Part shown: positions 6,909 to 45,391 of the stretch, piece by piece
How positions within the stretch are numbered: position 1 is the first letter of the stretch
Layout of the letters: the number at the start of each line of letters is the position of its first letter
Source: a virus
Lineage: Duplodnaviria; Heunggongvirae; Uroviricota; Caudoviricetes
IMG/VR virus record: IMGVR_UViG_3300023707_000001
Length of the DNA: 64,000 nt
Reading direction: 5' to 3' (one strand)
Translations under genes and position numbers: made by a program
Notes under the pieces: generated by a model
The model's database searches: none
What the model was told of the DNA's origin: nothing
What the model saw: the letters and a program-made list of their open reading frames with translations, nothing else

Positions 6909-7190
6909 TTATATACTGTTAACCCATACTAAATAGCGAGGAGCCGAGTATTCTCCCCAGCATTTCTCGATATCATGCTTTTTACGCCTGTCAATCCATG
7001 CCTGCTTATCGCCCACATAAGATTCTGGCTGCGCCGATTCGATATGCTCGATATGGCAAATGTCAGCCATGAATGCGCCTTTTAAGACATCTTCCTTGTC
7101 TCTTACATAGACTGTTTCGTGCAGCTCAATCAGTAAAGGCACATTAGAACTCATAGCTATCTGCCTCCGGATTCCATACAGGGACACCAT
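6909..7190 (-). CDS. hypothetical protein (93 aa)
   Basis: Minus ORF. Confidence 0.4.
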   Translation of the reverse strand: MVSLYGIRRQIAMSSNVPLLIELHETVYVRDKEDVLKGAFMADICHIEHIESAQPESYVGDKQAWIDRRKKHDIEKCWGEYSAPRYLVWVNSI

Positions 7191-8876: not shown

Positions 8877-8879
8877 GAT

Positions 8880-28190: not shown

Positions 28191-28946
28191 CTACGCATCG
28201 CCTCTTTTTGTGTTTATTATTCTTTCGTGTATTGCCGCTTTTATGAATTTATTTAAATCTTCAAGCGGCTGGGGGTTTGGTTTTTGGTCCACAAAAAAGG
28301 ATTCCACTTCCTTTGCGTGATTGCGGTAATTATCCAAATGAAACTTTACCGTTTTCAGTGAAAATTCCCCTTCTTTGAACCAAAGTAATGCATCTCGGCA
28401 CATACTATCTTGTTCGTACCAAAAAGCGCTTGCAAAATATCGAGTTTTATAATACCTCGTAAGAAAGTCCACTACACGTATAGCGTGATGGGCGCTCTTA
28501 GGGTCGTATCCATACGTTTGAATTGCCTCATGCCTAGCGGGCGAGTCCATCAACATCAGCTTTTCCTTTTGAATAGACGTTCCCATCGATGCTGCATATA
28601 AGCGAGGCAGATTCATTGTTGCCAGCTTTTCCCTATTCTCTGTTAAATAATCAATCAGGGTAGAATTGCCGCTCAATTCTCTGGAATACAGGATTTCAAT
28701 AAAGTTTAGATTCGCTTTCCAAAGTAAACTCGGAAGCTTGCGAATATCATGGATGGTATAATCTTCCGTATTGGTGACAACTTCTTTATGATATTCCTGA
28801 TTGCGATAAAGGTCCTCAAACGTTGGCCACACGAAATACTTGTAGTCTTTATCGGACTTTGGTGTGTTCAAGTTATAATTATGGCTACCTACCAACGCTT
28901 TCAGGCAAATGGCGTGGCCATCAACAATGTCTCCGACATCAAACAC
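28191..28946 (-). CDS. pol-beta-superfamily nucleotidyltransferase (251 aa)
   Basis: hGS-x10-SDKD pattern (LVGSHNYNLNTPKSDKDY), the G[GS]...DxD signature of the pol-beta NTase fold. Confidence 0.55.
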   Translation of the reverse strand: MFDVGDIVDGHAICLKALVGSHNYNLNTPKSDKDYKYFVWPTFEDLYRNQEYHKEVVTNTEDYTIHDIRKLPSLLWKANLNFIEILYSRELSGNSTLIDYLTENREKLATMNLPRLYAASMGTSIQKEKLMLMDSPARHEAIQTYGYDPKSAHHAIRVVDFLTRYYKTRYFASAFWYEQDSMCRDALLWFKEGEFSLKTVKFHLDNYRNHAKEVESFFVDQKPNPQPLEDLNKFIKAAIHERIINTKRGDA

Positions 28947-31535: not shown

Positions 31536-32417
31536 TTACTTCAAGAAGTCGGCTCCAAGGATGAAACCGCCGTTCTGACCGCTAATCTGAGGGAGCTTTC
31601 CGTCCCACTTAGAGATTGCATTCTGCTGGAGTACGCCGGGCGTCAAAGACTGTTGCAACTTGGCGTTAGCCTGTGCCTGGCCTTCCGCTTCAATCAATGC
31701 AGCATCAGCTTTACCCTTTGCTGCCACACGGGCCTTTTCAGCTTCAACTTCGGCCTGCTGTTTTTCAATCTTGGCCTGCTGGAGTGCATTCTGGGCATTT
31801 ACAACGTTCTGGATTGCCGTTGCCGTAGCCTCATCTGGCACCACGTCAGACAGATTGAAAGTCTCAATTACAATACCGCAATCTTCAAGGTCAGCCTTGA
31901 ACGTTTCGTAAATCTTCTGGTTGATTTCAGGACGCTTATCGCCTACCAGTTCCATCAAAGAATACTGGGAGGTGATATTATTGAGCGCTTCGTACATGGC
32001 ATTCTTCATGTACCCTGATTCAATCGATTTAATGTCCTGGCCGCGGAACTTAGCAAAAACGGTCGGAAGCTTCTCCGGATCCATATGGTAAGCATACGTT
32101 ACCGAAACGTTGACCTGTTTGCCATCCCGTGTGTTTACATTGACGGACTTATCGGTTTTCTTGTCCTTATCGTCGCCATCTACAGAATTTTTCGTGTAGT
32201 ACACGGTTTCCGTGGATATCGGATATTCGCTCACGTGTTTCCACGGTGCTACCATATGGAAACCCTGACCGAGCGTTTCGCTTTCAATGCCGCCATCCAT
32301 GTTATAGATGACTCCTGCATAGCCCGGACCGATGCGTGTTACGCAAAGAAACGCAATCACCGCAAACAGTGCCATGGCGCCTAAGATTCCTACCAAACCA
32401 AGACCTTTGTTTTCCAA
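31536..32417 (-). CDS. SPFH/band-7 (prohibitin/HflC-like) membrane protein
   Basis: N-terminal TM helix then an SPFH-like body with a coiled-coil tail; AGGAGG RBS 8 nt upstream. Confidence 0.65.
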   Translation of the reverse strand: MENKGLGLVGILGAMALFAVIAFLCVTRIGPGYAGVIYNMDGGIESETLGQGFHMVAPWKHVSEYPISTETVYYTKNSVDGDDKDKKTDKSVNVNTRDGKQVNVSVTYAYHMDPEKLPTVFAKFRGQDIKSIESGYMKNAMYEALNNITSQYSLMELVGDKRPEINQKIYETFKADLEDCGIVIETFNLSDVVPDEATATAIQNVVNAQNALQQAKIEKQQAEVEAEKARVAAKGKADAALIEAEGQAQANAKLQQSLTPGVLQQNAISKWDGKLPQISGQNGGFILGADFLK

Positions 32418-32588: not shown

Positions 32589-32681
32589 ATATAATTACTG
32601 GCGGACAGGGCACGATTCGAACGCGCGCGCCGCATCACTGCGACCTAGTGAGGTTCAAGCTCACCCTCTTCAACCACTTGA
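32589..32681 (-). tRNA. tRNA-Ser(TGA), type II
   Basis: Reverse complement folds as GGACAGG/CCTGTCC acceptor, anticodon loop CTTGAAC, long variable arm, T-loop TTCGAAT and encoded CCA. Confidence 0.75.
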
Positions 32682-33066
32682 GTACCTGTCCATGATAAAT
32701 GCGGCAATGAGTATTCAGACGGTTCCCCTACACTGACGGGACCTTTCGGGCGTTTATTTATTGTCTCCGCCCGAAGAAGATACCTGCAGCCGCATGTAGC
32801 AGGCATATTTATAGTGTTTGCGCACTTGGAGCTGTTGGAATTGCACAGACTTCGCATCCGGAATTGAAGCCTGTACGCACCAACACTTATTACCACCAGG
32901 ACGCCCGTCGGCGTGTCGGGAATCGAAACCCGCTCTTACTGTCCAATGTAGGAACTCCTTATAAAGGGAAACCCTGGACTCGAACCAGGCTGACCACCAC
33001 GGACCCCGCAGGGCGTCGGGAATCGAACCCGAATGCTCTTTTCCGCCACCTGACGTTTCCCATAAT

Positions 33067-33143
33067 ATGGTGCCCCTCCAGAGATTCGAACTCTGACTGT
33101 ACCGGGCTTAAACCGGTTGCCTCTGCCAATTGGGCTAGAAGGG
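33067..33143 (-). tRNA. tRNA with anticodon TAA (Leu-decoding) but short variable arm (atypical type I)
   Basis: Acceptor GCCCTTC/GAGGGGC, anticodon arm ACCGG-TTTAAGC-CCGGT, T-arm CAGAG-TTCGAAT-CTCTG, CCA encoded. Confidence 0.5.
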
Positions 33144-33149
33144 CATAAT

Positions 33150-33236
33150 ATGGTGCGCCTAGCAAGACTTGAACTTGCACGGTATCACTACCAGGAGATT
33201 TTGAATCTCCCATGTCTGCCAATTCCATCATAGGCG
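33150..33236 (-). tRNA. tRNA-Leu(CAA), type II
   Basis: Acceptor GCGCCTA/TAGGCGC, anticodon arm GGAGA-TTCAAAA-TCTCC, variable hairpin GGTA-GTGA-TACC, CCA encoded. Confidence 0.75.
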
Positions 33237-33242
33237 CATAAT

Positions 33243-33319
33243 ATGGTGTGATTGGTGCGATTTGAACGCACGACCTGCCGCTTAGGAGGCGGCTGCTCTA
33301 TCCAACTGAGCTACAACCA
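33243..33319 (-). tRNA. tRNA-Arg(CCT)
   Basis: Acceptor GTGGTTG/CAATCAC, D-arm GCTCAGTTGGATAGAGC, anticodon loop CTCCTAA, T-loop TTCAAAT, CCA. Confidence 0.75.
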
Positions 33320-33325
33320 CATGAT

Positions 33326-33388
33326 ATGGAGGCTTGGGCCGGGATCGAACCGGCGTGAAACGGTTTTGCAGACCGTTGCCTAACCACT
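33326..33388 (-). tRNA. tRNA-Cys(GCA), 3' portion only (gene interrupted by the IscB element)
   Basis: AAGTGGTTAGGC-AACGGT-CTGCAAA-ACCGT...GCCGG-TTCGATC-CCGGC-CCAAGCC-T-CCA closely matches bacterial tRNA-Cys from the D-loop onward. The 5' acceptor strand GGCTTGG is missing locally and is found 1.6 kb away at 34994-35003. Confidence 0.55.
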
Positions 33389-33390
33389 TA

Positions 33391-33437
33391 AAACGCGGCG
33401 CGGGGGACTCCACCCTCTACAGAGTGGAGGTGAGCGC
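33391..33437 (-). terminator. nested GC-rich hairpin at iscB 3' end (terminator or IS right-end structure)
   Basis: gcggcgc-ggggga-ctccac-cctctacaga-gtggag-gtga-gcgccgc: a 7-bp outer and 6-bp inner stem. Confidence 0.35.
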
Positions 33438-34685
33438 CGCTTCTCTCCTTTCGACTAAATACGAATTATTATGCATCAAAAATGTTATTTTTGATGGTGC
33501 TACTTCAGCCTTAGTTCCGTCTAGGTGCTTTAAGACAAAAGAACCTTTGACTCTCATACCTCTCACAAACCAGCATTGCTTTTGATAAAACACTGTGTCA
33601 TTTAAGCAGAACCCCCGAACAATATGTCCGGCTTGTGCTCGCTTACGAACGCCGCCTTTTGCTGGCACTTCGCGATGCAACTTACGGTTATGCCGACGAA
33701 TTTGTTTACGAAGATATTCGTAGTTGAGCCGTTCTGCATTGATATTGCCCGCAATACAGTAGGCGTCTGCCGAATGTGTTTTTGTAATACCATTTTTGAT
33801 GCGAGTGTTTTTCGTGATGTAGCCGTATGTTAAATGCACATCAGGATATTGCTCTTTAAGCTTGTTGTAAAAAGCCCAACGCATAATTCCCATGAAAGTC
33901 GCGTCTCGGAATCTCATGCCACGATGTATTGTCTTCGGTAAAGAGATATTGCCTTGATGATATCCCTGATGGCAGGTTTCACAAAGCGTTATCAGGTTAT
34001 TCGGCGCATTGCCTCCAGTCATACGACTTTCAATATGATGTACATTGAGTATTGGGTCGCCAGAACTCCCTTTACAGCACTGACATTGATGACCATCACG
34101 GAATAATACGTATTCACGAACATTCGCCCATCCAAACTGTTCTCCCTGCTGATATTCGACCCCAGAAATATCAGGATTCTTGATTTTCTGAATATCGAAT
34201 TGAGCTACTTCTACAATAACTTTCGTTACCGGAAGAATCTTATGGATATCCGCCACAAGCTTTAGATGAACATTGATTTTGTTCTCCACGCTTGGCGCAA
34301 GCCAACCTTTGTGTTTACGGCGAACCCGATTCAAAAATCTTACTTTGCGATACCGTGTCTTGCGGTTCCGGCGACTGTGACGAAGTTCTAACCGTTTAGC
34401 CAAAAGCCTTACAATAGATGCTTTGCCATCACCAGAGCGCATAATCGTTTCTGAAGCATATAATTCTTGTTTCTCTGTTGATGCTGAGGCTCCGATATGT
34501 ACAGAGCCAGCATCAATACCAAGAGTTATTGGCTGTTTATAGCCAGCTGAGCCATATTTCAACTTAATTGTAAACGGCTCATATTTTACAACCATAGCTT
34601 TGTTTTCCCTCAGCAGCTTTCTAGCTTTCTGAGGTTTACAAGGCATTAACGGTTGTCCGTTTTTATTGATAACGTACACGAACAT
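33417..34685 (-). CDS. iscB: IscB (OMEGA RNA-guided nuclease, Cas9 ancestor)
   Basis: 422 aa with N-terminal PLMP domain (VINKNGQPLMPC), RuvC-I (LGIDAGS), Arg-rich bridge helix, HNH (CQCC...NVHHIESR...N..LCETCH) and RuvC-III. AGGAGG RBS 8 nt upstream. Confidence 0.85.
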   Translation of the reverse strand: MFVYVINKNGQPLMPCKPQKARKLLRENKAMVVKYEPFTIKLKYGSAGYKQPITLGIDAGSVHIGASASTEKQELYASETIMRSGDGKASIVRLLAKRLELRHSRRNRKTRYRKVRFLNRVRRKHKGWLAPSVENKINVHLKLVADIHKILPVTKVIVEVAQFDIQKIKNPDISGVEYQQGEQFGWANVREYVLFRDGHQCQCCKGSSGDPILNVHHIESRMTGGNAPNNLITLCETCHQGYHQGNISLPKTIHRGMRFRDATFMGIMRWAFYNKLKEQYPDVHLTYGYITKNTRIKNGITKTHSADAYCIAGNINAERLNYEYLRKQIRRHNRKLHREVPAKGGVRKRAQAGHIVRGFCLNDTVFYQKQCWFVRGMRVKGSFVLKHLDGTKAEVAPSKITFLMHNNSYLVERREAALTSTL

Positions 34686-34993
34686 AACGTGTACCTCCTT
34701 TCCGAAGCTGAAGCTTCAAATTAGAGTAAATCTACCCTTCGCCAATGTTGTAATCGCTTGCCCGCAATGGCGGGCCGTCCTTAGGTTGACCGTTCCTCCT
34801 CTCAGAACTTTTACAGAGCCTACACAGAGCGGGGAGCTAGGATAAACACCCACGGGTGTGATAACGAAAACAACGTAGTCCGAGGCTTTTTCAAGCACTT
34901 GTCTAATACCGGACTTAGGCTAGTCGGTAAGAGCTTGCTTTCGCAAGCTCCCGCCTTCAAGCGCAAAGCGCTAGACGGGGGTTATTGACTAGA
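34686..34993 (-). ncRNA. IscB omegaRNA (HEARO-like), 5' guide expected at the tRNA-Cys junction
   Basis: About 300 nt directly upstream of iscB, ORF-free and hairpin-dense (GGGAGCTTGC-GAAA-GCAAGCTC, ACACCCGTGGGTGT, GCCCGC-CATT-GCGGGC), running up to the tRNA 5' fragment. Confidence 0.6.
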
Positions 34994-35003
34994 CTACCAA
35001 GCC
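34994..35003 (-). tRNA. tRNA-Cys(GCA) 5' fragment (GGCTTGGTAG)
   Basis: Exact complement of the 3' acceptor strand CCAAGCC at 33329-33335; it sits directly after the array spacer CATAATAAGG. Confidence 0.4.
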
Positions 35004-35011
35004 ATAATAAG

Positions 35012-35160
35012 GGGCAGTGGCGGGAATCGAACCCGCAACCAGCATCACCTATAAACTGTTTGCAACCAGTGTTATAGGCATGTTCTGTTTTATATCGGCG
35101 CAACCATTTCGTTAAGAGTCCTGTTTGCAACCAGAAAACTTAATATAGCCGACACTGCCA
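35012..35160 (-). tRNA. tRNA-like gene with ~70-nt internal duplication (probable pseudogene)
   Basis: Acceptor GGCAGTG/CACTGCC and T-arm GCGGG-TTCGATT-CCCGC are 149 nt apart; the anticodon-like module CTGGTTGCAAACAG occurs twice. Confidence 0.3.
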
Positions 35161-35169
35161 TGATAATAT

Positions 35170-35245
35170 TGGTCGGGATGACAGAATTCGAACCTGCGGC
35201 CTCCTGCTCCCAAAGCAGGCGCTGCCACCACTGAGCTACACGCGG
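35170..35245 (-). tRNA. tRNA-Pro(TGG)-like, acceptor stem not complementary (possible pseudogene)
   Basis: D-arm TAGCTCAGTGGTGGCAGC, anticodon arm CCTGC-TTTGGGA-GCAGG, T-loop TTCGAAT and CCA are present, but 5' CCGCGTG does not pair with 3' CATCCCG. Confidence 0.4.
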
Positions 35246-35579
35246 ATGATAGATATCCGGTTCGCAGGGAGCTCGACTAAGCGGTTGCCCTTTGTAGATA
35301 TCTTCACTATGCATCTTATCCTCTCTTCGCCGCATCGAGTCGGGAGCTACACCTAACTCTTTGGATAATACGCATAAAAATATTCAACTCGATGTACATA
35401 ATAAAGTCCGGAAGGTGTCCCGGTCTTGCCCCGGCTACTCACTTTTGTTTTGAGCTTTTGCCGGTGCCGATATATGGCCATATGACTTGTCCGTATCTTT
35501 ATCATACGGGAAAAGCCGACGCCAATATACCAGCGTTCTTTTCCTTCATCGTCAGACGTTAGCCTGATTTTGAAGATGA

Positions 35580-35662
35580 TGGCAGGGGTAACTGGACTCG
35601 AACCAGTGTAAGTAAATCGGAGCTTCAAAGGCTCCCGCCTTAACCAACTTGGCTATACCCCT
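35580..35662 (-). tRNA. tRNA-Gln(TTG) with unusually long (11 nt) variable region
   Basis: Acceptor AGGGGTA/TACCCCT, D-arm GCC-AAGTTGGTTAA-GGC, anticodon arm GGAGC-CTTTGAA-GCTCC, T-arm ACTGG-TTCGAGT-CCAGT, CCA. Confidence 0.6.
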
Positions 35663-35667
35663 AAGAT

Positions 35668-35724
35668 GAGGGACGGCAGGGTTCGAACCTGCGACGCATT
35701 GCGCCCGCCTCTCAACGACCCCTC
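35668..35724 (-). ncRNA. ~57-nt anticodon-arm-less tRNA-like element (mini-tRNA)
   Basis: Acceptor-like stem plus intact T-arm GCAGG-TTCGAAC-CCTGC, with only about 23 nt between them. Confidence 0.3.
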
Positions 35725-35963
35725 ATAAGTGGAAGGCTGTATTCCTTTCGTGCACAGCACACCGAAGCACTACCCAGAATGTTATACTGTCTGAGCGCAG
35801 TTGTTTCTTGAACAATAGCTAAAAAGGCTTTCGCCCGTACAACTCTCAATCTTTATTAAGAGCTCTACGGGCGCCTGAACCGAAGTTCAGAGCGCTCGCT
35901 ATTTTGTTTGTTTCTTAGAAAAAGGAGAGGAACTTACAAGGCTTTCGCCTTGCTTATTCCATA

Positions 35964-35995
35964 TGGTGGACCCCCTCGGACTTGAACCGAGGACC
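35964..35995 (-). tRNA. tRNA 3' remnant (T-arm + acceptor 3' strand + CCA) abutting the HNH endonuclease gene
   Basis: CTCGG-TTCAAGT-CCGAG-GGGGTCC-A-CCA; no matching 5' half. The HNH gene's stop codon is 19 nt away. Confidence 0.4.
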
Positions 35996-36013
35996 CGCGT
36001 CCACTGATTTTGT

Positions 36014-36643
36014 TTATGCGCCATACTTTTCGTACGACTTTATCCATTTTGCTATGGCCTTACCAGAAACGCCATAGCGCCGTCCCATCTCAGATTTGTT
36101 GCGACCAACTTCTTCATACTCTTTGAAGAATTCTTCTTTCGTTGGACGCACCGTCTTTCTTGCCCAGGGACGTATATTTCCTAAGACCGCTTCATCGACA
36201 TCATAATGGTTACAGAATTTTTCTTTTTCCATCGCTTTTTTTGCAACTTTTTCTTCTGCTATACGAACTCTTTCTTTTAGTGGAACAATCCATTTTTCGT
36301 ATTCATTAAGTTTGTGCTGTCCTTTAGCATGTTCTTCGGCATGGCAGTTAGCGCAAAGAAGAACACATTTGTCTAATTCCTTTTTTAAGCGATGCCAGCC
36401 GAGATTGTATTTTTGTCCAATGCCAAAATTCTTTTGCTGGGGGTCGAGATGATGGAATACCAATGCATTTTCGCATTTATCGTATCCGCATACCTGACAT
36501 TTCCTGCCTTTGTACTTAACAGCTCTTTGTTTCAAAAGCTTTTTTCTATAGTTTTGTCTGCAAGTGTTACAAATGTCTTTTGAGTGTCCTTTACTGCGGC
36601 CATATTCATATTCATTGCCACAAACTTTACATACATATTTCAA
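36014..36643 (-). CDS. HNH homing endonuclease with C-terminal HTH
   Basis: HNH core VFHHLDP...N...LLCANCH with a flanking Zn-ribbon CKVCG...CNTC; C-terminal GRRYGVSGKAIAKWIKS helix-turn-helix. Confidence 0.7.
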   Translation of the reverse strand: MKYVCKVCGNEYEYGRSKGHSKDICNTCRQNYRKKLLKQRAVKYKGRKCQVCGYDKCENALVFHHLDPQQKNFGIGQKYNLGWHRLKKELDKCVLLCANCHAEEHAKGQHKLNEYEKWIVPLKERVRIAEEKVAKKAMEKEKFCNHYDVDEAVLGNIRPWARKTVRPTKEEFFKEYEEVGRNKSEMGRRYGVSGKAIAKWIKSYEKYGA

Positions 36644-36725
36644 TTCATATCACCGTAGGCAACATTACCTATTGTGTGAACTTAAAACATGATGTTAGTT
36701 CAAAAAGTGCTCACAAATTAATTAA

Positions 36726-36804
36726 TGGTCCAGGCGGTGGGACTTGAACCCACGTAAGACACGGCTTATAAGGCCGCCGCTACCACCAACTTAGCTACGC
36801 CTGG
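36726..36804 (-). tRNA. tRNA-Ile(TAT) (AUA decoder)
   Basis: Acceptor CCAGGCG/CGCCTGG, D-arm GCTA-AGTTGGTGG-TAGC, anticodon arm GCGGC-CTTATAA-GCCGT, T-arm GTGGG-TTCAAGT-CCCAC, CCA. Confidence 0.55.
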
Positions 36805-36810
36805 GTAAGG

Positions 36811-36850
36811 TGGACCCCTCAGGGCTTCTAACCAACTGAGCTAGGGGTCC
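36811..36850 (-). ncRNA. ~40-nt tRNA-like hairpin (acceptor stem + D-arm only)
   Basis: GGACCCC-TA-GCTCAGTTGGTTAGAAGC-CCTGA-GGGGTCC-A-CCA. Confidence 0.3.
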
Positions 36851-37113
36851 TTAATCGAGACGACATGGCATTTTGCCGTCTCTAGTGAGTTTTTTTGCTA
36901 ACGTCGGGAGTTCGCCTACTCCCTCGATACACCTATCGCGGTATTCTGCGCTTGACATCTATAACGGCCAGTCAAGTCTCCGGCAGGTTATGGTTTTCTG
37001 CATACCATTTCCGCACCTGGTTGCCTTGCAGGCTCTCATTTACCCTTTGTTTCAGTTAGATAATTGCGCACTCATCATTGCCTATTCCTCAGGGTAAACT
37101 AAAACGGATTCCT

Positions 37114-37141
37114 CCCCGCTGAGACGCTAACCTCGTTGGGG
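37114..37141 (+). promoter_or_regulatory. conserved hairpin, ACGCTAAC loop variant (cccc-gctgag-ACGCTAAC-ctcgtt-gggg)
   Basis: Member of a 5-copy family with invariant loop and covarying stems. Confidence 0.4.
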
Positions 37142-37706
37142 ACATGATATAAACGGGAATGTTGCTGCGGTAGCTGCAAATCCTACCGCAACTCCCGTGA
37201 TACTTTTACGAAGCTCGAAACGGAGGATGCCAACCCGTCATTCTACAGACTCGTCCTTTGCAGTGGACTACTGATGGCCCCTTTATTATATAATTGCGTT
37301 GATACCCGACTGTTAATGCAGTATCCTGGGGCATATAGCCGCCCGCTTTTTGGTTAGTATATGACTCTTCCCGACAGAGCATCATCAGCTAAGTGATGTC
37401 TTGGGGTTTATGTCTTGTCCTTGACAACCGGCTTTGCCTTGTCACGGCATCCCATGATGCTTGGTCTGTCATGGTATCCGCCGAAATCTAACCCTGTCAT
37501 TTCGGTAACTGATTTTCGTACAGTCATTTTTCAGGATGATCAGTCCTGCAATCAGGTTTACGCTGCTTTCTTACGCATAGCAGTAAATACGCGGCGCGGC
37601 AACGCCAATCACCTGTTGGCGCAGGTGTTTTTGCTGTTTCTCGTTCAGCTCCGACAGGTGAATTCAGGCCTGTCCAATTACGCTCTTGTCGCAACCAAGA
37701 GAGGTA

Positions 37707-37761
37707 TCTACTCTGCAGGAATCGAACCTGCTTCTTCCAAAAGGCCACCAGACCAGAGTAC
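37707..37761 (-). ncRNA. ~55-nt anticodon-arm-less tRNA-like element (mini-tRNA)
   Basis: GTACTCT...GCAGG-TTCGATT-CCTGC-AGAGTAG; the middle TCTGGTGGCC... is similar to the 41999-42053 copy. Confidence 0.3.
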
Positions 37762-38761
37762 ATGATATTAGATGCGATAACCGACTTTATAATTCTTCGT
37801 CATCAAGCCAATCTTGAAAACTCATTTTTATCCCCTTTTTAATAAATTACGCGGGCGGAACGACGGAAGTTCCCGCGTGAGGTGCTTTTCTTATCTTAAG
37901 GCGGCAGCACCCTTCCTGCTTGAAGTGCACATCGGCAGGTTATTGCGTTCGGCCGGACTGGCTTACATCTTTTACGCCCTAAACCCGTTGCAAACGTGGG
38001 CGGAGGATTTTTACTGCTTTACTGCAGGTTCTGAAGCTCTCTTGTCAATGTCCGTACGGACTTGCACCGTACACCTCCCCCTTACCGGGGTGCCACTACT
38101 GTTATGACTAAGTATTTGACCTCTACGTCGCCGGACTCTAACACGGCTATTGACTCCTGGGTGCGAGCTCGACATATTCACAGACGCTCCTGCTGTGATG
38201 GGTTTTAATGTCTTTTCCTTGACAATTTTATGGTTGTCACGATTTGGTGAATTTCGTGTGGCAGCACAATTTCCGCTTTTGACTGCAAAAGTCGATAAGC
38301 TTTATTTATCTGCCAATATCTTTTATGAGATTTGTTCATTGAAAGGATGCGGTCGTGAGCCGAAATCGCTTCATGCGCTTTAGCTATACCTGCATTAATA
38401 CTTTCGATTACTTGCTCCGGAAGTTTAGTCTGCATATCTCTCACCATCCTCTGGCAACGGCTGGCCGGTATATATTATGCCACCCACTTTGCCGCATTTA
38501 GGACAATCCCATTTAGCAAGCCATTCCCCCTGCTTGTGCACGGACAACCAACGGTGCATGCAATGCAGGCAGATTACTTCGGCCACTTCATGCGGACTGT
38601 TCTTTTCTTTGTACTCTTGTAAATCAATGACCTTGCTCATGTTCTATCTTCATCGTTCAACATAGATACAGCTCCAATCGCTATTGCCCCAATCATTACA
38701 AGGGCGAAAATTAACATAAAGCCTGCAAAGACACTATCTGCTGCCGTCATACTTACACCTC

Positions 38762-39319
38762 TTAATATCGTATCCTCTTATAAGCTAACCAGTCTGTGGC
38801 ACCCATGAATAAGTTTGCTATGCATTGTGCCGCGATACAATACTCTACACTAATCTGCGTAAAGATTATCGCGATTACGCTGCCTAATAGTGCCGCCGTC
38901 AGATTAACCGTTTTAGACAAGCTGTTCCATTTTGTCAATCTATCGCCCTCAATCTTATGATTGATTGCGTCATTTACCACAGTAAACCAAAGAGTTGATG
39001 ATACGGCATTTAAAACAGCTAAGCCTAAGAATCTGACTTCCGGGATTGATATGCCTTCAAAACTGATAAGCGCGAAACAGACAACATCTATTGCGATTAT
39101 CCATAAGAAGTGATGCCGATAAAAGTCTTTGAGTTTATCTGACTGGATAGATGCGTTTACGCCTGCCGCCAAAGCGGTGGTCAGAATATTGGCCATGGCC
39201 AAAACACTGGAACTTATCAGGCTTATAAAATATATGTGGATAATTGGCGATGTTGCTGAATAAACAAAGTCTACGACAGCAGTACCGCCGAGAAGGTATA
39301 ACTTTACTTTCTTTTCCAT
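38762..39319 (-). CDS. polytopic membrane protein (185 aa)
   Basis: Five to six hydrophobic helices. Confidence 0.45.
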   Translation of the reverse strand: MEKKVKLYLLGGTAVVDFVYSATSPIIHIYFISLISSSVLAMANILTTALAAGVNASIQSDKLKDFYRHHFLWIIAIDVVCFALISFEGISIPEVRFLGLAVLNAVSSTLWFTVVNDAINHKIEGDRLTKWNSLSKTVNLTAALLGSVIAIIFTQISVEYCIAAQCIANLFMGATDWLAYKRIRY

Positions 39320-39837
39320 TTATCTTTTATGCCTTTGCTTTCCAGATAGGCGATTACGCCTCTATCAAAAACCTCATAGTGTTTCTGGTCATACGGTCTT
39401 CTGTCACGTAACATTGCCGAATCGTGAGAAATGCCGATAATATTTCCGCCCGCTTTTTTACAAAAACGGTCATACATCTTCTCAATCGGGTTCCCAATTA
39501 CCACTGTCCATTCCAACTTGTGAAACCCTCTATCGACGAATAGATATTTTAAGAACTGGTAAAAGTCTTTTGAAAAAACAAGGTCACACTTGGGGCCATA
39601 GTTGATTACACTCATACTGGCCAGCCTGTTAAGCGTTTCGTCGACAGCTACGCTAAAATATCCATGTACATTGTCTTCTTTATCGACTGATACCATCTGG
39701 ATGTTATTCCAGGTATTCTTGTCAACAACAATCTCTGTTTCCCATCCACCGTAATACCACTTTGTGTTTGGGTTCATCCAGTTTGCACGGTCCGTTTTAC
39801 GGAGCGCGTCTTCGTAATCCATCGCAAAAGCTAACAA
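39304..39837 (-). CDS. hypothetical protein, possibly GNAT-fold acetyltransferase (177 aa)
   Basis: RGFHKLEWTVVIGNPIEKMYDRF resembles GNAT motif A/B; weak. Confidence 0.35.
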   Translation of the reverse strand: MLAFAMDYEDALRKTDRANWMNPNTKWYYGGWETEIVVDKNTWNNIQMVSVDKEDNVHGYFSVAVDETLNRLASMSVINYGPKCDLVFSKDFYQFLKYLFVDRGFHKLEWTVVIGNPIEKMYDRFCKKAGGNIIGISHDSAMLRDRRPYDQKHYEVFDRGVIAYLESKGIKDKWKRK

Positions 39838-39966
39838 AATATTTTCCCCTTTCTCATATCAGTTCATTAAGACAAATCTATAATCCGGTGCAAGCTTCCG
39901 GAAAACATTTCAATAGATTTGCCTTAATCAGCCGATATGGCTGATTTCTTAAGCTCCGTAATTTTC

Positions 39967-39996
39967 GTTCCTTTGAGACGTTAACCTCATCGGAAC
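39967..39996 (+). promoter_or_regulatory. conserved hairpin gttcc-tttgag-ACGTTAAC-ctcatc-ggaac
   Basis: Two-tier stem with invariant loop; lies 3' of the tmRNA candidate. Confidence 0.4.
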
Positions 39997-40003
39997 GGTG
40001 GCT

Positions 40004-40033
40004 GCCGCTTCAAGACGTTAACCTTGTCGCGGC
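40004..40033 (+). promoter_or_regulatory. conserved hairpin gccgc-ttcaag-ACGTTAAC-cttgtc-gcggc
   Basis: As above. Confidence 0.4.
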
Positions 40034-40035
40034 CG

Positions 40036-40433
40036 TGGAGACGACGGGAGTCGAACCCGTGTCCAAAATGCATCCACCTGTAAGACATTATCGCAATAGG
40101 CATTTTTAAGAGCGCCATTCTCTAGGGTGTAACCAGCCGAACAAAGCGTAATGGTCTACACCTCCACCACCTGCTTTTTCGAAAGCAGGAAAACTCCCCG
40201 TGTTGTTTACGTCGAGCGGGCCTCCTGACGTTTGCTGTGTTTATTTGAAACCTACCGCCCTGCTCACAGCTAGTGATACGATAGGGGCTAACCAATCTAC
40301 CTTACGGCAGATTAGGCAGCGAGACGATATTCAACTTCGTCAGTTAAATTTAGCGGTTAATGAGTTAGACGTCATAACCATCGGTCTGCGAATCTTACGG
40401 CTTCAACACCCTGTCGAAACCAATTTCGTCCCC
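40036..40433 (-). ncRNA. ssrA: tmRNA (ssrA) candidate, tag ending ...DEVEYRLAA
   Basis: 5' GGGGACGAAATTGGTTTCGACAGGG and 3' GGACACGGGTTCGACTCCCGTCGTCTCCA closely parallel E. coli tmRNA ends (GGGGCUGAUUCUGGAUUCGACGGG ... GGACGCGGGUUCAACUCCCGCCAGCUCCACCA). The acceptor pairs GGGGACG/CGTCTCC. An internal frame reads ...ACT GAC GAA GTT GAA TAT CGT CTC GCT GCC TAA. Confidence 0.65.
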
Positions 40434-41998
40434 ATATGACCCTTTCGGGTCAGGCTATTAAACGCTTTTACTGGTATGAAAGATGATGAAGTACCAGTGC
40501 AGGTTTTTAGTGCCCGAGATACAGCAGCACTGTGTCGGATTGACCCATCCAAGCTTTGGCAAATAACTGCCCGATACCTGGGGGGTAAGCTTTACCGATT
40601 TGAACGAGATTGCTGTCCCTGTCTTTGCTTACGAGGTCTAATAATAGCATGCTCCGCATTGCGCTATACGGAACAAGGTACTCCTTCCGCATTTGTCGCG
40701 AATGAGCTATGATACCCGAAAGGATAAGCAGTATCTGGAGAATTTGGAGATGGGTTAGTCTCCATGACCGAGTTCTCGCTTTTTTTTATGAATTCCTTTT
40801 ACGGCCGCCAAGTAACTTACTCACCCCGCAGGGGAGGCCCACATGTCTTTGGCGTTTACCGGATTACTGCCGTAGCCACCGGTTTCCCTGCTTAACCCTG
40901 TGCCAAGCAGTTATCTTATGCAGGTTTTATGTCGGTTCTTCCGACTCGGGCGGCTTATTACGTAGTGCCCTTACCCTACGCCGTTTTTCGCCTTGGAGGC
41001 TAAATCACCTTCGTGCCTGTTATTATCCTTAAGTTGATAAGCTGTGTACTTTAGCTCATCCAGATAAAAGTAATCCAGGTACGCTTGGCGCAACCTTGCT
41101 ACCACTGAACCGAGCTACCGTTTGTACTTTACGGCGTTATCGGGGTGGACCAGGTTTTATATTCTTCGGTATACCTCCACCGAAAGGAATGCCTTCGCGT
41201 CGTTATTCTGAGTGCTAAAAACCGTGGCCTTTAGTTCTTACTTCCTCAGCAATTGTCCGATAGCGAACGCTCCGATAAAGGTCATCTCTTCGGCTGTTGG
41301 CACCGGGTAATCGAGACGCCTGCACACAGCAGTGCGAACCCAAAAACGCGGTTGGCCTATTCTGGTTACAGCCAAGGGTAATGGAGCCCTTATCCCGGTT
41401 TAACCTACCGTGCCGGGCAAGGAAAGCTTTCGTGTCGTGGAACGCGGCCTTATCGCCTGTCCGGCATGCTCCTTTCGGGACATCCGGGGTCCACGGTGAC
41501 TCAAGCTGGCTGTCTATTTACGCGCTCGCAGCCATTGAACGCCCGATTCTTAGAACTTCGGAAAACCCGCGAAATATTCATGGAGCTGTTTAACGTGCTT
41601 TACACCTTCATCGTCGCGGAAGCTTGACCTCACGGGCTATCCTAAGCTTATACACACCCGATAGCCAATTGGTGCCCGATTTTAATATCGGGAAACATCT
41701 TGATGCCCGGCTCCCAAGGCAGCATCATGGATTTAACATCGCCTGTAAAGGTAGCGACCCTTTTACATTTCCGGCGCCCAATTGCGCACGGTGGAGATTG
41801 GATAAGCGCTCCTTGCAGGAATCGAACCTGCCTTATGTACTGGATTGGTTATCCAGTATAAGCATAGCTCCCAGAGTTGGAACATTATAGGCGCCTGATA
41901 TGCTTTTACCATCCCTCAGGCGGGGGATGCCACGTCTGGAAATCATTGTGGCACAATGTTTGTTCCGAAAAGATTGATCATTTCCCTCAGAACAATGT

Positions 41999-42053
41999 TG
42001 CTCAATACAGGAATCGAACCTGTCTACCGGCCGGTGTCCCCCAGACTTTGAGC
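41999..42053 (-). ncRNA. ~55-nt anticodon-arm-less tRNA-like element (mini-tRNA)
   Basis: GCTCAAA-GT-CTGGGGGACACCGGCCGGTAGA-CAGG-TTCGATT-CCTG-TATTGAGC. Confidence 0.3.
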
Positions 42054-42058
42054 ATGAT

Positions 42059-42129
42059 ACCCCCAAGAAGGATTCGAACCTTCGCCGCAAGCCGTAGCCT
42101 TACGAGCTCTGCCGGAGGAGCTTTGGGGA
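42059..42129 (-). tRNA. degenerate tRNA-like gene (pseudo-tRNA)
   Basis: Acceptor TCCCCAA/TTGGGGG, D-arm GCTC-CTCCGGCA-GAGC, T-arm GAAGG-TTCGAAT-CCTTC; no canonical anticodon arm. Confidence 0.3.
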
Positions 42130-42139
42130 TGTATGATAT

Positions 42140-42222
42140 AGGGGCAGGGAGGAATCGAACCACCATCATAAGAAAGCCCCATTTGCTTTCTCGTCCGCTC
42201 TAGCCATTTGAGCTACTGCCTC
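42140..42222 (-). tRNA. tRNA-like gene with 7-bp anticodon-like stem and non-canonical loop AAATGGG
   Basis: Acceptor GAGGCAG/CTGCCCC, D-arm GCTC-AAATGGCTA-GAGC, hairpin AGAAAGC-AAATGGG-GCTTTCT, T-loop TTCGATT. Confidence 0.3.
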
Positions 42223-43083
42223 ATTATGGGGGCGACTTGTTTTACATCCTGCCGCCTTCGGATATGCGGTCAACCGTTGCCTCTACCGCCAGGGGGAATT
42301 TATACGATTTTTTTCCTTATCGGGTTTTATCGTCTTTTCCTTGACACGTATGATACAATAGACATCGGCTGAGAATATCGTAAAAATACTTTATCTACCT
42401 TTCACAAAACATGCATAACAAATGCTCCTCACCGAGCATTCCTTGCTACTGGGCAAGCACGGTAGCAATACATGTAGGCCAGGTATGGGATAACAGCTCG
42501 CAATCTTGCAAAAGACCTCGCGACCTGCCCGCCCCGCTGAAGTTTTTCCAAAAAACTTAGAAAGGAAGATTTAGCCATGGAATTATCCTTGACTCCGGAG
42601 TTTTTCGACTCTTTGCGCGATGCGCTGTATGCCGTCGCACTCGTAGTTTTAGCGTTTAAGTCCTAATACTTGCATAAAACGATATTCCCGGCTATTTTTA
42701 TATCTATTGCATCATACCTGCCAAGGAGGCAGGTATTTTTTGATTGCTGCTCGTCTCAAACAGCTTGGCTACTCAGCGTCGGTGTAGCCTCTCGTGCCGG
42801 GTTTTAACGGCTTTTCCTTGCCGTTGCCCACGGTCGAACCGTGAAAGCCTTGCACCTATCCGGCTTGTCCTCTAGGGCCGGATGTACCGTATTTCTTTAG
42901 GCGTTCATACGGTGTCCTCATTGGAGACTTTCTACCACTGGCCAAGTTTCTTTCTGGGCGCTCCGGAGGCTTGCAGGAAGCGGTACAGCCTCTCTGCATT
43001 CTTTATTCGCTGCATGGTTCTCTTGGCAACCAGCAGTCAGGTCACGCATGTTTTATGGCCGACATTAGTGTCGGTCGCAAAAT

Positions 43084-43380
43084 TTAAAAATCTGAATCTC
43101 GCTCGTAAGTTTCCTCAATTTTATATGAGTGAATTTCTAAGCGATGTTCACCATCGTTGTAATACGCGCCATTGTCACAATCTTCAAGGCCGTATTCATT
43201 AACCCAGTCGTCATAGCATGCCTGGGCGGCTTCGGCGTTTGAAAAAACACCCATAACGTCCTGGTCATAATCATCGCATAAAGTTTGGTGAATAACCATA
43301 TATACTGTCATATTCTTCTCTCCTAAAACAGGATTCTCATAAGGTGGACGATATTCTATGGCCTCATCCGGGCCAGTCAC
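43084..43380 (-). CDS. hypothetical acidic protein (98 aa)
   Basis: Minus ORF inside the RNA-gene region. Confidence 0.4.
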   Translation of the reverse strand: MTGPDEAIEYRPPYENPVLGEKNMTVYMVIHQTLCDDYDQDVMGVFSNAEAAQACYDDWVNEYGLEDCDNGAYYNDGEHRLEIHSYKIEETYERDSDF

Positions 43381-43391
43381 ATGGAGGGGAT

Positions 43392-44036
43392 TTATTCAAA
43401 GCTGCCAAAACTAATAGTCGGAAACACTTCCTGGCGCATCTTTATTATCTGCTTTCGCTTTTCATCGAAATAAACAAGACAGTTTTCGGGAATACGGCCG
43501 ACTACCTCAAAAGTTCGCACGAAAGGCATTTCCAATAAACCTACGAATGGATTCTTCTCTCTTATATCAAGTGAACCCTCGTAAGATGTTCCCAGGATAA
43601 CCCATGTCTGCGCATCGGCAGTGATTTCGCTTTCCAGAATATCACGTACATCCTGTGTTGTTCCTGCGCTTGCGAATTCGTCAATGAACGTTACTGTGCG
43701 TCGTTTATCCGAACACAATGTAATCATATTGTGCTCATTGGGAACGATGTCGATTTGCGGATACTGTTTCTTGTAATCATCGCCAAGGACTTCTTTTAGA
43801 GTCCTTTCCATAAATTTGGAATGAACTATATAACCGCACTTAATGACAATGTGGTCAGCCATATCTTGGGATAAGATTTTCTTTACCGCATTGGCGATAA
43901 AAGTGGTTTTGCCAAAACGACGGTCTACGTTGATTGCTGTTATGCCGCCGTCGATAAGATTCGCCAATGGAATCTTATCAAACCAATCTCCAGCCCCATA
44001 GCTGCAAATAACTTGTTTTTCAAGACAATTGCTCAT
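43392..44036 (-). CDS. RecA-superfamily P-loop ATPase (RadB/KaiC/Sak4-like, 214 aa)
   Basis: G.GDWFDKI...LIDGGI...VDRRFGKTTF parallels the RecA/KaiC Walker A region; Walker B VTFIDEF. Confidence 0.5.
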   Translation of the reverse strand: MSNCLEKQVICSYGAGDWFDKIPLANLIDGGITAINVDRRFGKTTFIANAVKKILSQDMADHIVIKCGYIVHSKFMERTLKEVLGDDYKKQYPQIDIVPNEHNMITLCSDKRRTVTFIDEFASAGTTQDVRDILESEITADAQTWVILGTSYEGSLDIREKNPFVGLLEMPFVRTFEVVGRIPENCLVYFDEKRKQIIKMRQEVFPTISFGSFE

Positions 44037-44203
44037 TATATGCTACCTCAGTGTTTCTTACCAGTAGTAGCTACATAGCGGCCCATCAGCCAGCCGTTCA
44101 TAACCGGCGTATTTACCGTAGCGCAGCATTTTGCCTTGGGATAAAACAGGCTCTTACCAACTCTGCTTCCTTTTGTGTTGTTAGAATAAGTTTTTACCAT
44201 AGA

Positions 44204-44431
44204 TTAACCAAACCTTTCTATCAAAAAATTCATTATGTTTTTTATGAGGAAGCCAAGCGCCGGCCCTGCGATAAACACAACCACTGCAAGCACAATTGCT
44301 CCTTCATAAAGTTTTGAAGCTATTAATACAACAAGAAGTGTTGCAATAACCACTGCACAAGTTGCAACCAAGTAAGTTGCATACTCACATATTTTATCTA
44401 GTGTTTCTTCCGAGAAAAACAAGTTGAACAT
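44204..44431 (-). CDS. small membrane protein (75 aa)
   Basis: Two TM helices. Confidence 0.4.
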   Translation of the reverse strand: MFNLFFSEETLDKICEYATYLVATCAVVIATLLVVLIASKLYEGAIVLAVVVFIAGPALGFLIKNIMNFLIERFG

Positions 44432-44456
44432 TTTTATCTTTCTCCGTTATTTAAAA

Positions 44457-44542
44457 TGGAGCCCCCGGTCAGATTCGAACTGACGTGTCCTTTCGGAACC
44501 GGTTTACAAAACCGGTGCAATCGGCCTCTATGCGACAGGGGC
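44457..44542 (-). tRNA. tRNA-Thr(TGT) with 12-nt variable region
   Basis: Acceptor GCCCCTG/CGGGGGC, anticodon arm CCGGT-TTTGTAA-ACCGG, variable TCCGAAAGGACA, T-arm GTCAG-TTCGAAT-CTGAC, CCA. Confidence 0.6.
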
Positions 44543-44548
44543 GTAATA

Positions 44549-44624
44549 TGGAGCGGAAAACGAGACTCGAACTCGCGACACCCGACTTGGAAGGACGGTG
44601 CTCTACCAACTGAGCTATTTCCGC
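44549..44624 (-). tRNA. tRNA-Gly(TCC)
   Basis: GCGGAAA-TA-GCTCAGTTGGTAGAGC-A-CCGTC-CTTCCAA-GTCGG-GTGTC-GCGAG-TTCGAGT-CTCGT-TTTCCGC-T-CCA; near-identical architecture to bacterial tRNA-Gly. Confidence 0.8.
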
Positions 44625-44627
44625 AAA

Positions 44628-44703
44628 TGGCTCCCCGAGCTGGACTCGAACCAGCGACATATGGATTAACAGTCCACCGTTCTACCGGCTGAACTATCGG
44701 GGA
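44628..44703 (-). tRNA. tRNA-Asn(GTT)
   Basis: TCCCCGA-TA-GTTCAGCCGGTAGAAC-G-GTGGA-CTGTTAA-TCCAT-ATGTC-GCTGG-TTCGAGT-CCAGC-TCGGGGA-G-CCA. Confidence 0.8.
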
Positions 44704-44798
44704 AGGGCGTAGGCAGTTAGGTCATACCCAGGACCTATTCTGTTTCCCTCATATCAGGGCCGTTGTAAGCCGACATGAGTGGCCGAATAGTAACCATT

Positions 44799-44830
44799 CC
44801 TTAGTGTTGTTTCTTGCCGGACGTTAACCC
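44799..44830 (+). promoter_or_regulatory. conserved hairpin gtttc-ttgccgg-ACGTTAAC-ccggtt-cgaaac
   Basis: Lies 15 nt 3' of tRNA-Ser(GCT). Confidence 0.4.
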
Positions 44831-44844
44831 GGTTCGAAACATGA

Positions 44845-44936
44845 TGGCGGAGCCGGTTGGATTTGAACCAACGATACCCTATAATGGGTATAACACCTTA
44901 GCAGGGTGCCGCCTTAAGCCTCTCGGCCACGACTCC
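44845..44936 (-). tRNA. tRNA-Ser(GCT), type II
   Basis: Acceptor GGAGTCG/CGGCTCC, anticodon arm GCACC-CTGCTAA-GGTGT, long variable hairpin TATACCC-ATTA-TAGGGTATC, T-loop TTCAAAT, CCA. Confidence 0.75.
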
Positions 44937-45173
44937 GGTTGAGCAGTTATTTCATGCTCAGGAACTACTCTGTTTTCCAATTCTACCGACGGATTAAGGC
45001 AGTCTCGTGGCCGAATAGTAGCCATTTTTTGTCATTAAGACCGTCTGGGACTCAACAACATATATCTAATCCCTTTGCAGGGGATTATTCATAGAATACT
45101 GCATTTGGTACTTGGCTCAGGGGGGGTAATGATACCACGCTGCAGTGGGCGTCCAGGAAATTGTTAGCCTCTA

Positions 45174-45192
45174 ACCAGACGTTAACCTGGTG
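45174..45192 (+). promoter_or_regulatory. conserved hairpin aaccag-ACGTTAAC-ctggtg
   Basis: Fifth copy of the motif. Confidence 0.35.
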
Positions 45193-45316
45193 TTGGGCAT
45201 TATCAGGCGGCCGGCAATTTTTACATCCCTCGACCGCGAAGGATACCGCTTTCGCGGCACTACACGTAGTGTTGCGCCCAGTCGGTTGATCGGACCAACC
45301 GGACTAATATTAGCTA

Positions 45317-45391
45317 AGCCAATGCCAGGACTCGAACCTGGGTCGCCGAGGTTACAGTTTCGGTGCTCTCTCCCTATTGAGCTACATCGGC
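45317..45391 (-). tRNA. tRNA with 18-nt anticodon arm (8-nt loop; anticodon TGT or GTA ambiguous)
   Basis: Acceptor GCCGATG/CATTGGC, D-arm GCTC-AATAGGGA-GAGC, anticodon arm CCGA-AACTGTAACC-TCGG, T-arm CCAGG-TTCGAGT-CCTGG; no CCA encoded. Confidence 0.45.

Follow-up and report, generated by a model that had tools for sequence, protein, structure and literature searches.

Within a 64,000-nucleotide (nt) stretch of a Caudoviricetes virus (IMG/VR record IMGVR_UViG_3300023707_000001; hereafter "the window", meaning this whole stretch), the minus strand from 45391 to 32599 forms the 13-kb RNA island of a rumen jumbo phage, and we found that it carries, among its canonical transfer RNA (tRNA) genes, miniature tRNA mimics without decoding capacity. 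Three of these elements (E1, E2 and E3) and a paralogue of the third (E6) are conserved in related phages and are not products of random decay. Our best explanation, put forward tentatively on the strength of sequence comparison, is that they are genes for mimics that act as RNase P/RNase Z processing handles punctuating a polycistronic RNA island.

35667..35724, minus strand: E1, a 58-nt tRNA-like element without an anticodon loop, with discriminator A and no CCA (from sequence and fold)
37707..37761, minus strand: E2, 55 nt, with leader ATATCAT and no CCA (from sequence and fold)
41999..42053, minus strand: E3, a 55-nt mini-cloverleaf, with leader TATCAT and no CCA (from sequence and fold)
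41808..41880, minus strand: E6, a 73-nt E3 paralogue with a longer middle hairpin lacking anticodon features and with leader TATAAT; a ~1.37-kb non-coding RNA (ncRNA) lies directly 3'

An initial annotation, made by a model from the letters alone, had described E1–E3 as an acceptor stem, a D-like segment and a perfect T-arm with nothing at the position of the anticodon arm. Its coordinates proved correct to the base and the three structural parts were confirmed, while the supposed void was borne out for E2, where only an 11-nt linker stands, and not for E1 and E3, where we found a stub hairpin of 3–5 bp with a loop of 3–4 nt. None of the three (0/3) has a 7-nt anticodon loop. As the tRNA genes of the array are all on the minus strand, the elements are read on that strand, with the following layouts.

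E1: GAGGGGT-CG-TTGAGAGG-[CGGGCGC AAT GCGTCG]-GCAGG TTCGAAC CCTGC-(C)GTCCCTC-A
E2: GTACTCT-G-[GTC TGGT GGC]-C-TTTTGGAAGAA-GCAGG TTCGATT CCTGC-AGAGTAG-A, with the mini D hairpin GGTC-TGGT-GGCC
E3: GCTCAAA-[GTC TGGGG GAC]-[ACC GGCC GGT]-AG-ACAGG TTCGATT CCTGT-ATTGAGC-A

Each has a short GG-containing segment at the D-arm position, a T-arm with all five pairs (5/5) and a TTCGAWY loop (TTCGAAC or TTCGATT), then the acceptor 3' strand and discriminator A; the acceptor stems comprise 6–7 pairs, with a G.G mismatch at 1:72 in E2 and an A.A mismatch at 7:66 in E3. The middle motif that the initial annotation saw in both E2 and E3 is indeed common to them as GTCTGG(T/G)GG(C/A)C, though without the leading G once included in it; it can fold a mini D hairpin of 3–4 bp with loop UGGU or UGGGG, and the exact pattern has two sites in the window (E2 and E3) against none in 100 shuffles. 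T-arm-type hairpins in general number 23 in the window against 0.31 expected from 300 dinucleotide shuffles, which excludes chance, and eight of them fall outside the called tRNAs and transfer-messenger RNA (tmRNA).

Evaluated against known families, E1–E3 fall outside tRNA, tmRNA, YrlA and mascRNA by every test run. They do have the acceptor stem on a 5-bp T-stem with a UUCRANY loop closed by G53-C61 that marks a canonical tRNA, but not its 5-bp anticodon stem with a 7-nt loop bearing U33. ARAGORN calls none of E1, E2 or E3 and the tRNA model RF00005 does not match them even at E ≤ 10, while the Rfam tRNA-Sec model spans exactly 35668-35724 and 41999-42054 at only 15–18 bits, far below its gathering score of 47 and with large deletions. 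The G3.U70 pair and 3' CCA of tmRNA are absent (E3 has U3-A70, E1 G3-C70 and E2 A3-U70), and the beta_tmRNA model covers E2 only partially, at 16.9 bits against a gathering score of 84, far short of membership. No YrlA match falls over E1–E3, the weak YrlA matches in the window overlap canonical tRNAs only, and no open reading frame (ORF) of Ro60 size occurs in the window. The tmRNA domain, YrlA and mascRNA, tried as families for E1–E3, were thus set aside without Rfam support.

To follow the elements across related phages, relatives were anchored on an SPFH gene (31536-32417) at the island's end, which has hundreds of homologues on contigs of 200–330 kb, mostly from rumen and gut metagenomes. 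Syntenic loci with 85–93% SPFH protein identity (L163–L166, L180, L183, L207 and L209) were compared and more distant loci (L167–L174) were also taken; the non-coding parts of the island align to relatives at 75–93%, and a nucleotide search of GenBank phages with the island gave no match. Two other anchors were rejected: a 177-amino-acid ORF (39304-39837), whose homologues are 40–83% identical and have no tRNA array alongside, and an HNH ORF of the island, which found no relative among viral contigs.

Across these loci the armless form is conserved, in 2–8 genomes depending on the element and more weakly for E2 (two lineages). E3 occurs in eight related phage contigs of ~200–330 kb, the window counted: five (window, L165, L180, L207 and L166) carry the 55-nt form, and L163, L164 and L209 carry a 72-nt form whose stub hairpin is 17 nt longer with a 5-nt loop (ATTTT), in which no anticodon arm is restored and which ARAGORN does not call. 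At acceptor pair 6 of E3, two genomes have A-U and the rest U-A, while the stub is closed by A-U (ACCGGCCGGU) or by U-A (UCCGAUCGGA); both changes are compensatory. We scored the E3 cloverleaf explicitly, since RNAalifold gave a non-tRNA fold: on that structure 89% of alignment cells are paired, against 33–47% with the partners slid. A family covariance model was dropped, as MAFFT placed gaps within the acceptor stem and yielded no consistent structure line. The E3 discriminator is A, G or T among orthologues, and this variation argues against an aminoacylation identity. E1 is present in six genomes (window, L163, L164, L165, L180 and L183) with one compensatory T-stem pair (C-G or U-A), and E2, absent from L163 and L165, has an orthologue in L209 (7116-7183) at 94% identity. 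For E6, the L183 orthologue has a different middle hairpin sequence with its pairing kept, and E6-like elements in the distant L170 and L172 have wholly different acceptor stems that are still paired, that is, fully covarying.

Elements are 90–98% identical between genomes whose adjacent spacers are unalignable, as spacers adjoining elements often are. The initial annotation had left decay and function side by side and named full-length tRNAs at the same positions in relatives as the sign of decay; by that measure the decay reading fails for E1 and E3, the longer E3 form likewise having no anticodon arm. With the short form syntenic in six (E1) and five (E3) genomes and its stems changing in compensatory fashion, decay does not fit these two, and a functional tRNA-like RNA that probably retains the RNase P and CCA-enzyme recognition surface is favoured. 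The lack of conservation and random loss of pairing expected of neutral pseudogenes were not found, although this holds less strongly for E2 and for the L166 and L209 copies.

Much of the value of these mimics lies in their link to large, uncharacterised RNAs, as they stand directly against conserved non-coding blocks.

40434..41804, minus strand: ~1.37-kb block between E6 and the tmRNA, conserved in 7 relatives
37290..37706, minus strand: ~417-nt block directly 3' of E2
35725..35960, minus strand: ~240-nt block between a tRNA(CAT) gene and E1, abutting the 5' end of E1
36851-37150, 37854-38225 and 42230-43084, minus strand: further non-coding blocks, conserved in relatives (240–850 nt with the two preceding blocks included)

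Directly 5' of the ~1.37-kb block stands an element of the E3 type (E3 itself, the 72-nt form of E3, or E6) in the window, L163, L164, L209, L180, L207 and L183. In the core of this block 146 pairs are predicted, and 30 of these show compensatory double changes among seven genomes, while Rfam gave nothing for it at E ≤ 10; judged by its covariation, the block behaves as a large structured RNA. The ~417-nt block is 93% identical in L209, where it also follows directly after E2, and is absent from the other relatives. The last 80 nt of the ~240-nt block are up to 98.7% identical in relatives, and in L166 a different tRNA-like replaces E1 at exactly the same block junction (...CCACUUAU|G). In most genomes the distance from mimic to block is 0–2 nt. 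Both blocks tested (the ~1.37-kb block and the 300-nt block at 36851-37150) have covariation typical of structured RNA. A mascRNA-like module, as a functional class and not by homology, is marked by a tRNA-like fold placed directly where a long structured ncRNA starts or stops, and E1, E2 and E3/E6, flush with conserved blocks, share this feature. Gene callers found nothing in the long non-coding stretches of the island, in any relative.

Some further features of the blocks are recorded here. The context of the ~1.37-kb block, in a phage and beside tRNAs, recalls that of the large phage ncRNAs GOLLD and ROOL. The 300-nt block, immediately 5' of tRNA(CAT), starts directly after an ATATCAT leader and has 80 predicted pairs, nine of them with double changes; the other further blocks of the island are conserved in 1–7 relatives.

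Armless elements of the same design also turned up in unrelated sequences. In four cases from a pattern scan, the D motif and T-loop are identical and the 7-bp acceptor stems are unrelated yet perfectly paired.

L001, a viral contig: armless element of 59 nt
L030, a viral contig: armless element of 45 nt, GGAGUGC-G-GUCUGGUGGCC-UA-T-arm-GCACUCC
L223, Liquorilactobacillus mali: armless element of 53 nt
L221, a Gemmatimonadetes metagenome-assembled genome: armless element of 56 nt

A 7/7 acceptor stem within 60 nt is closed by four of the eight pattern matches that have a perfect T-stem, against a chance of ~0.03 per match by our own estimate, and the copies in L030 and L223 are solitary, lying between small ORFs with neither tRNA nor repair genes seen close by. 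A looser pattern (TCTGGNGG...GGTTCGAWTCC) was discarded, most of its at least 118 matches falling on the anticodon arms of ordinary tRNA-Pro (GTCTGGGGGAC) or on full-size tRNAs of other kinds; most matches of a stricter one lack a T-stem and were put down to chance. Beside these, L001 carries, just upstream of its armless element, a 129-nt tRNA (3027-3155; Rfam 40 bits) with a ~58-nt insertion, which ARAGORN does not call and which is followed by a GIY-YIG endonuclease gene. Alphaproteobacteria have a ~60-nt conserved element (...GCCUGAUAG-GUCUGGUGG-GU-UGGGGUUCGAUUCCCCU-UCACCUG...) with the D motif and T-arm and no obvious acceptor closure, at the loci below; at L216, the single locus of this set that was scanned, no Rfam family reached its gathering score.

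Bacterial genomes L216, L220, L222, L225, L230, L232 and L211, and viral L150: loci of the ~60-nt element

Two further properties of the array bear on processing. ARAGORN finds 13 tRNAs and a tmRNA (40433-40035) in the window, to which Rfam adds a tRNA at 42222-42140 and, next to an IscB gene, a HEARO RNA; in the window's 32599-45391, CCA is encoded by all 13 canonical tRNA genes or gene remnants (13/13) and by none of the nine odd tRNA-likes (0/9), a split with an exact probability of ~2e-6 by our own calculation, so that its absence from the odd elements looks like a class property. A 6-nt leader or spacer, TAT(C/T)AT, places its final U at position -1 of canonical tRNAs (Ser, Arg, Pro, Leu), and it also stands 5' of E2, E3 and two other odd tRNA-likes, E7 and X35020. 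We rejected, by inference, its reading as a promoter -10 element, because it adjoins position +1 of mature tRNAs.

RNase P needs a minihelix with an elbow and prefers U at -1, and the RNase Z of Bacillus subtilis acts on CCA-less precursors. The mimics have the corresponding determinants, namely a 12-bp coaxial stack of acceptor stem and T-arm, the T-loop, a GG-bearing D-loop substitute that can form the elbow, U-1, and a discriminator without encoded CCA. As we picture it, the island would be transcribed as long precursors, in which RNase P would cleave 5' of every mimic and RNase Z, whose substrates lack CCA, would cleave behind the discriminator. For E1, such cuts would fix the 3' terminus of the block that precedes it; for E2 and E3/E6, they would fix the 5' terminus of the large ncRNA that follows. 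The left-over ~55-nt by-product could receive CCA. It is the position at large-RNA borders, together with the retained surface for processing enzymes, that leads us to prefer the processing-handle reading over the decoy, primer or substrate roles suggested at the outset.

Several observations weigh against it. Cleavage at the borders of the mimics is purely what we infer. Covariation within orthologues is thin (two pairs in E3, one in E1), the E3 double changes are reached in 73 of 500 shuffles and with five sequences are not statistically strong, and RNAalifold favours a non-tRNA fold for the E3 orthologue alignment. The E3 of L166 has two T-stem mismatches and the 72-nt E3 of L209 has mismatches in the acceptor and D parts, either of which could be early decay. 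In L165 and L166, 60–190 nt of unaligned spacer stand between E3 and the conserved portion of the large RNA. Placement is also redundant in parts: mimics stand in tandem with other tRNA-likes (42222-42140, E7, E3), where one handle would be enough for punctuation, and E1 lies only 4 nt from a canonical tRNA-Gln, where one would likewise suffice. Finally, the signs of selection on the stub hairpin suggest that more than the minihelix matters.

That conservation of the whole mini-cloverleaf, stub included, together with the tandem arrangement and shared leader resembling those of tRNA genes, is what a second explanation would predict. Here the excised ~55-nt RNAs, with CCA added, would act in trans as decoys or substrates that bind proteins recognising the acceptor, T-arm or elbow and so protect or buffer the tRNA pool; candidate partners would be RNA-repair enzymes encoded by the phage itself, or host anti-phage toxins directed at the acceptor end of tRNAs. 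We consider this explanation as a whole unlikely. RNA-repair proteins encoded in the window (the first three entries below) do fit a phage in conflict over tRNA integrity.

8340-8879, minus strand: Tpt1/KptA RNA 2'-phosphotransferase (163 bits)
53851-54372, minus strand: HAD domain of "Swiss Army Knife" RNA repair proteins (89 bits)
28194-28946, minus strand: candidate RlaP-type nucleotidyltransferase (22.1 bits, below the cut-off of 23)
57232-59145: NAD-dependent DNA ligase

The encoded nucleotidyltransferase that the initial annotation took as a possible partner has a counterpart only in that weak RlaP-family match. Against the decoy explanation, the usual cleavage site of known anti-phage tRNA nucleases is the anticodon loop, the very part missing from the mimics; the standalone L030 and L223 copies, as described, have no tRNA or repair genes seen nearby, and flush placement against large ncRNAs is left unexplained. 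That placement, at 0–2 nt from the block in most genomes, would instead be expected if the mimics stayed uncut as 5' or 3' end modules of the large ncRNAs, protecting their ends or allowing CCA addition. E1 at the 3' end of its block suits such a role, as an RNase P cut at tRNA-Gln followed by trimming would leave a tRNA-like 3' terminus. We nevertheless hold this to be quite improbable, as the mimic can be swapped (L166), duplicated (E3 and E6) or joined at another large-RNA entry point (L180, L207) with the block kept, and a modular handle therefore fits better than an integrated domain; the U-1 leader in common with tRNAs likewise suggests cleavage on the 5' side.

There is little probability, in our estimate, that the mimics are neutral relics, that is, tRNA genes that lost the anticodon arm by ancestral deletion and persist without function. 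The tRNA arrays of this family are in flux (a split tRNA(CAT) and a truncated tRNA-Cys in the window), the L166 and L209 copies of E3 carry mismatches, and there are few substitutions on which selection can be judged, all of which would suit decay. But the elements stay nearly identical where adjacent spacers cannot be aligned, their stem substitutions are mostly compensatory, the design recurs with unrelated stems in unrelated phages and a Lactobacillales genome, and encoded CCA separates odd from canonical elements completely. Unusual decoding or aminoacylated tRNAs, such as synthetase minihelix substrates feeding a non-ribosomal reaction, seem very improbable: some synthetases can charge an acceptor/T-arm minihelix and suppressor tRNAs in relatives point to unusual translation biology, but the mimics have no 7-nt anticodon loop and no G3.U70, the discriminator of E3 varies and E2 has its 1:72 mismatch.

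Placing the mimics beside known systems, there is a close likeness to mascRNA of MALAT1 and its MEN-beta counterpart (Rfam mascRNA-menRNA). These are ~55–61-nt cloverleaves whose anticodon arm is reduced and which directly adjoin a long structured ncRNA; they are excised by RNase P and RNase Z and then given CCA. That system is eukaryotic and nuclear, however, and the phage mimics have neither sequence homology to it nor a match to its Rfam family; they also occur 5' of large RNAs and in tandem within a tRNA array, and their own excision is a prediction. Mitochondrial tRNA punctuation is similar in that tRNA or tRNA-like units part the other RNAs of one transcript as RNase P/Z cut sites and the loss of arms is tolerated, but armless mitochondrial tRNAs lose the D- or T-arm, keep the anticodon and decode, whereas the phage mimics keep the T-arm and elbow. 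The tRNA-like domain of tmRNA, including the minimal mitochondrial tmRNA, shares the acceptor stem, T-arm and D-loop substitute without an anticodon arm, and a phage tmRNA lies in the same island, with E2 giving the weak partial tmRNA-model match; unlike tmRNA, the mimics lack G3.U70 and encoded CCA, and their halves are contiguous without an mRNA-like domain between. The species 1 and 2 RNAs of the T4 tRNA cluster and the C4 RNA of P1/P7 are non-tRNA RNAs in or near phage tRNA clusters, matured by tRNA-processing enzymes through tRNA-like ends; they differ in being larger and in having other folds. YrlA (Rfam RF02553) has an acceptor-like stem, a T-arm and a D-arm mimic without an anticodon, but it also has a Ro60-binding stem and adjoins rsr; its tRNA-mimic module is reported to be an RNase P substrate and to occur in phages too (PMC4201824). 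A literature search for anticodon-less tRNA-like genes in phage arrays found no direct precedent, an absence that is weak evidence.

A wider generalisation, which we regard as doubtful, is that phages carry a distinct, rare but widespread class of mini-tRNAs (without anticodon and CCA, with a GTCTGGKGG D-loop substitute and a canonical T-arm) as portable processing or stability modules, here maturing very large, undescribed structured RNAs between tRNAs and a tmRNA and elsewhere standing alone between protein genes. As tRNA finders and Rfam miss the mimics, phage tRNA arrays are annotated as tRNAs and empty spacers, yet in this island the supposedly empty stretches contain the conserved mimics along with several large structured RNAs without a known family. 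If the mimics are handles, this would explain why large phage ncRNAs (GOLLD, ROOL) tend to adjoin tRNAs and would give exact, testable end positions for RNAs of uncharacterised function. Should excised mini-tRNAs also receive CCA and interact with host factors, they would serve as tRNA decoys besides, in the conflict over tRNA integrity to which the RNA-repair genes of the phage point; were they decoys instead of handles, they would represent a new phage counter-measure in the conflict over tRNA integrity.

Two further fragments that the initial annotation had grouped with the mimics belong elsewhere. Their sequences are as it described (the acceptor 5' strand with the D-arm, and a T-arm/acceptor/CCA remnant), but together they make up a single tRNA(CAT) gene that a mobile cassette has interrupted.

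36811..36850, minus strand: E4, the 5' piece of tRNA(CAT), positions 1-23, followed by AGCCCTGA and a duplicated GGGGTCCACC
35964..35995, minus strand: E5, the 3' piece of tRNA(CAT), with variable loop, T-arm, GGGGTCC and ACCA
35996..36810, minus strand: cassette splitting tRNA(CAT), with tRNA-Ile(TAT) at 36804-36726 (ARAGORN and Rfam) and the HNH ORF at 36643-36014

L163 (7678-7755) and L165 (7890-7966) carry an unbroken tRNA(CAT) gene at the syntenic position, and it is likewise unbroken in L166, L180 and L183; in the window 817 nt stand in for its anticodon arm, and the cassette is absent from relatives. The HNH endonuclease has 209 amino acids (PHROG match, E = 7e-29), and with E4 and E5 making up one tRNA and an endonuclease gene between them, the locus has the makeup of a homing-endonuclease-interrupted tRNA gene. 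We take the intact gene to resemble Escherichia coli ileX (tRNA-Ile2, CAU made into lysidine), and if it is ileX-like, one AUA decoder would have been replaced by another. The split gene is an example of homing-endonuclease cassettes remodelling phage tRNA arrays. Arrays of this phage family are in flux: this window alone has both tRNA(CAT) split by the HNH cassette and tRNA-Cys truncated by an IscB/HEARO cassette.

33389-35165, minus strand: IscB/HEARO cassette between tRNA-Pro and tRNA-Cys, with X35020 at 35159-35013, the HEARO RNA at 34989-34726 and the IscB gene at 34685-33417
42062..42222, minus strand: tandem pair of full-length, non-canonical tRNA-likes just upstream of E3, comprising E7 (42130-42062) and the element at 42222-42140

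In relatives, tRNA-Pro and tRNA-Cys are adjacent and intact with no such cassette between them, and the window tRNA-Cys is missing its first 13 nt (remnant 33388-33320) where the cassette truncates it. X35020 is a 147-nt acceptor and T-arm RNA with a large insert, and X35020-like RNAs occur at other places in L165. Of the tandem pair, E7 is missing from L166 and L180. The element at 42222-42140 (Rfam tRNA, 33.9 bits) has an "anticodon" loop, AAAUGGG, that is invariant in at least six genomes and a stem with two double compensatory changes in L166, and in the window its acceptor 3' strand is short of 3 nt through a deletion; because it has no U33, it is probably not a normal decoder. A 97-nt RNA at 32965-33061 (minus strand), called tRNA-Ser(CGA) by ARAGORN and not called by Rfam, has two T-arm-like hairpins (loops UUCGAUU and UUCGAGU) within one acceptor stem and is 96–100% conserved in relatives; a paralogue of it, with acceptor GGGAAGC/GCUUCCC, takes the place of E1 in L166 (about 8960-9070).

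Relatives encode suppressor-type tRNAs (UUA and CUA anticodons) in the same array, which the window strain does not have.

L163 6994-7086; L165 7206-7298 and 7515-7591; L180 8428-8504; L183 8638-8714; L207 9049-9125: suppressor-type tRNAs

A crude test of the window for stop-codon recoding gave no clear sign, and recoding as the reason for the long non-coding stretches was rejected, since reassigning TGA, TAG or TAA brought no convincing gain in ORF length. Within the RNA island a mini-ORF of 12–15 codons (37797-37835, minus strand; M..DWLDDEE...) with a Shine-Dalgarno-like sequence is conserved, lying before E2 in the window and after a suppressor tRNA in relatives (L163, about 7095-7140).

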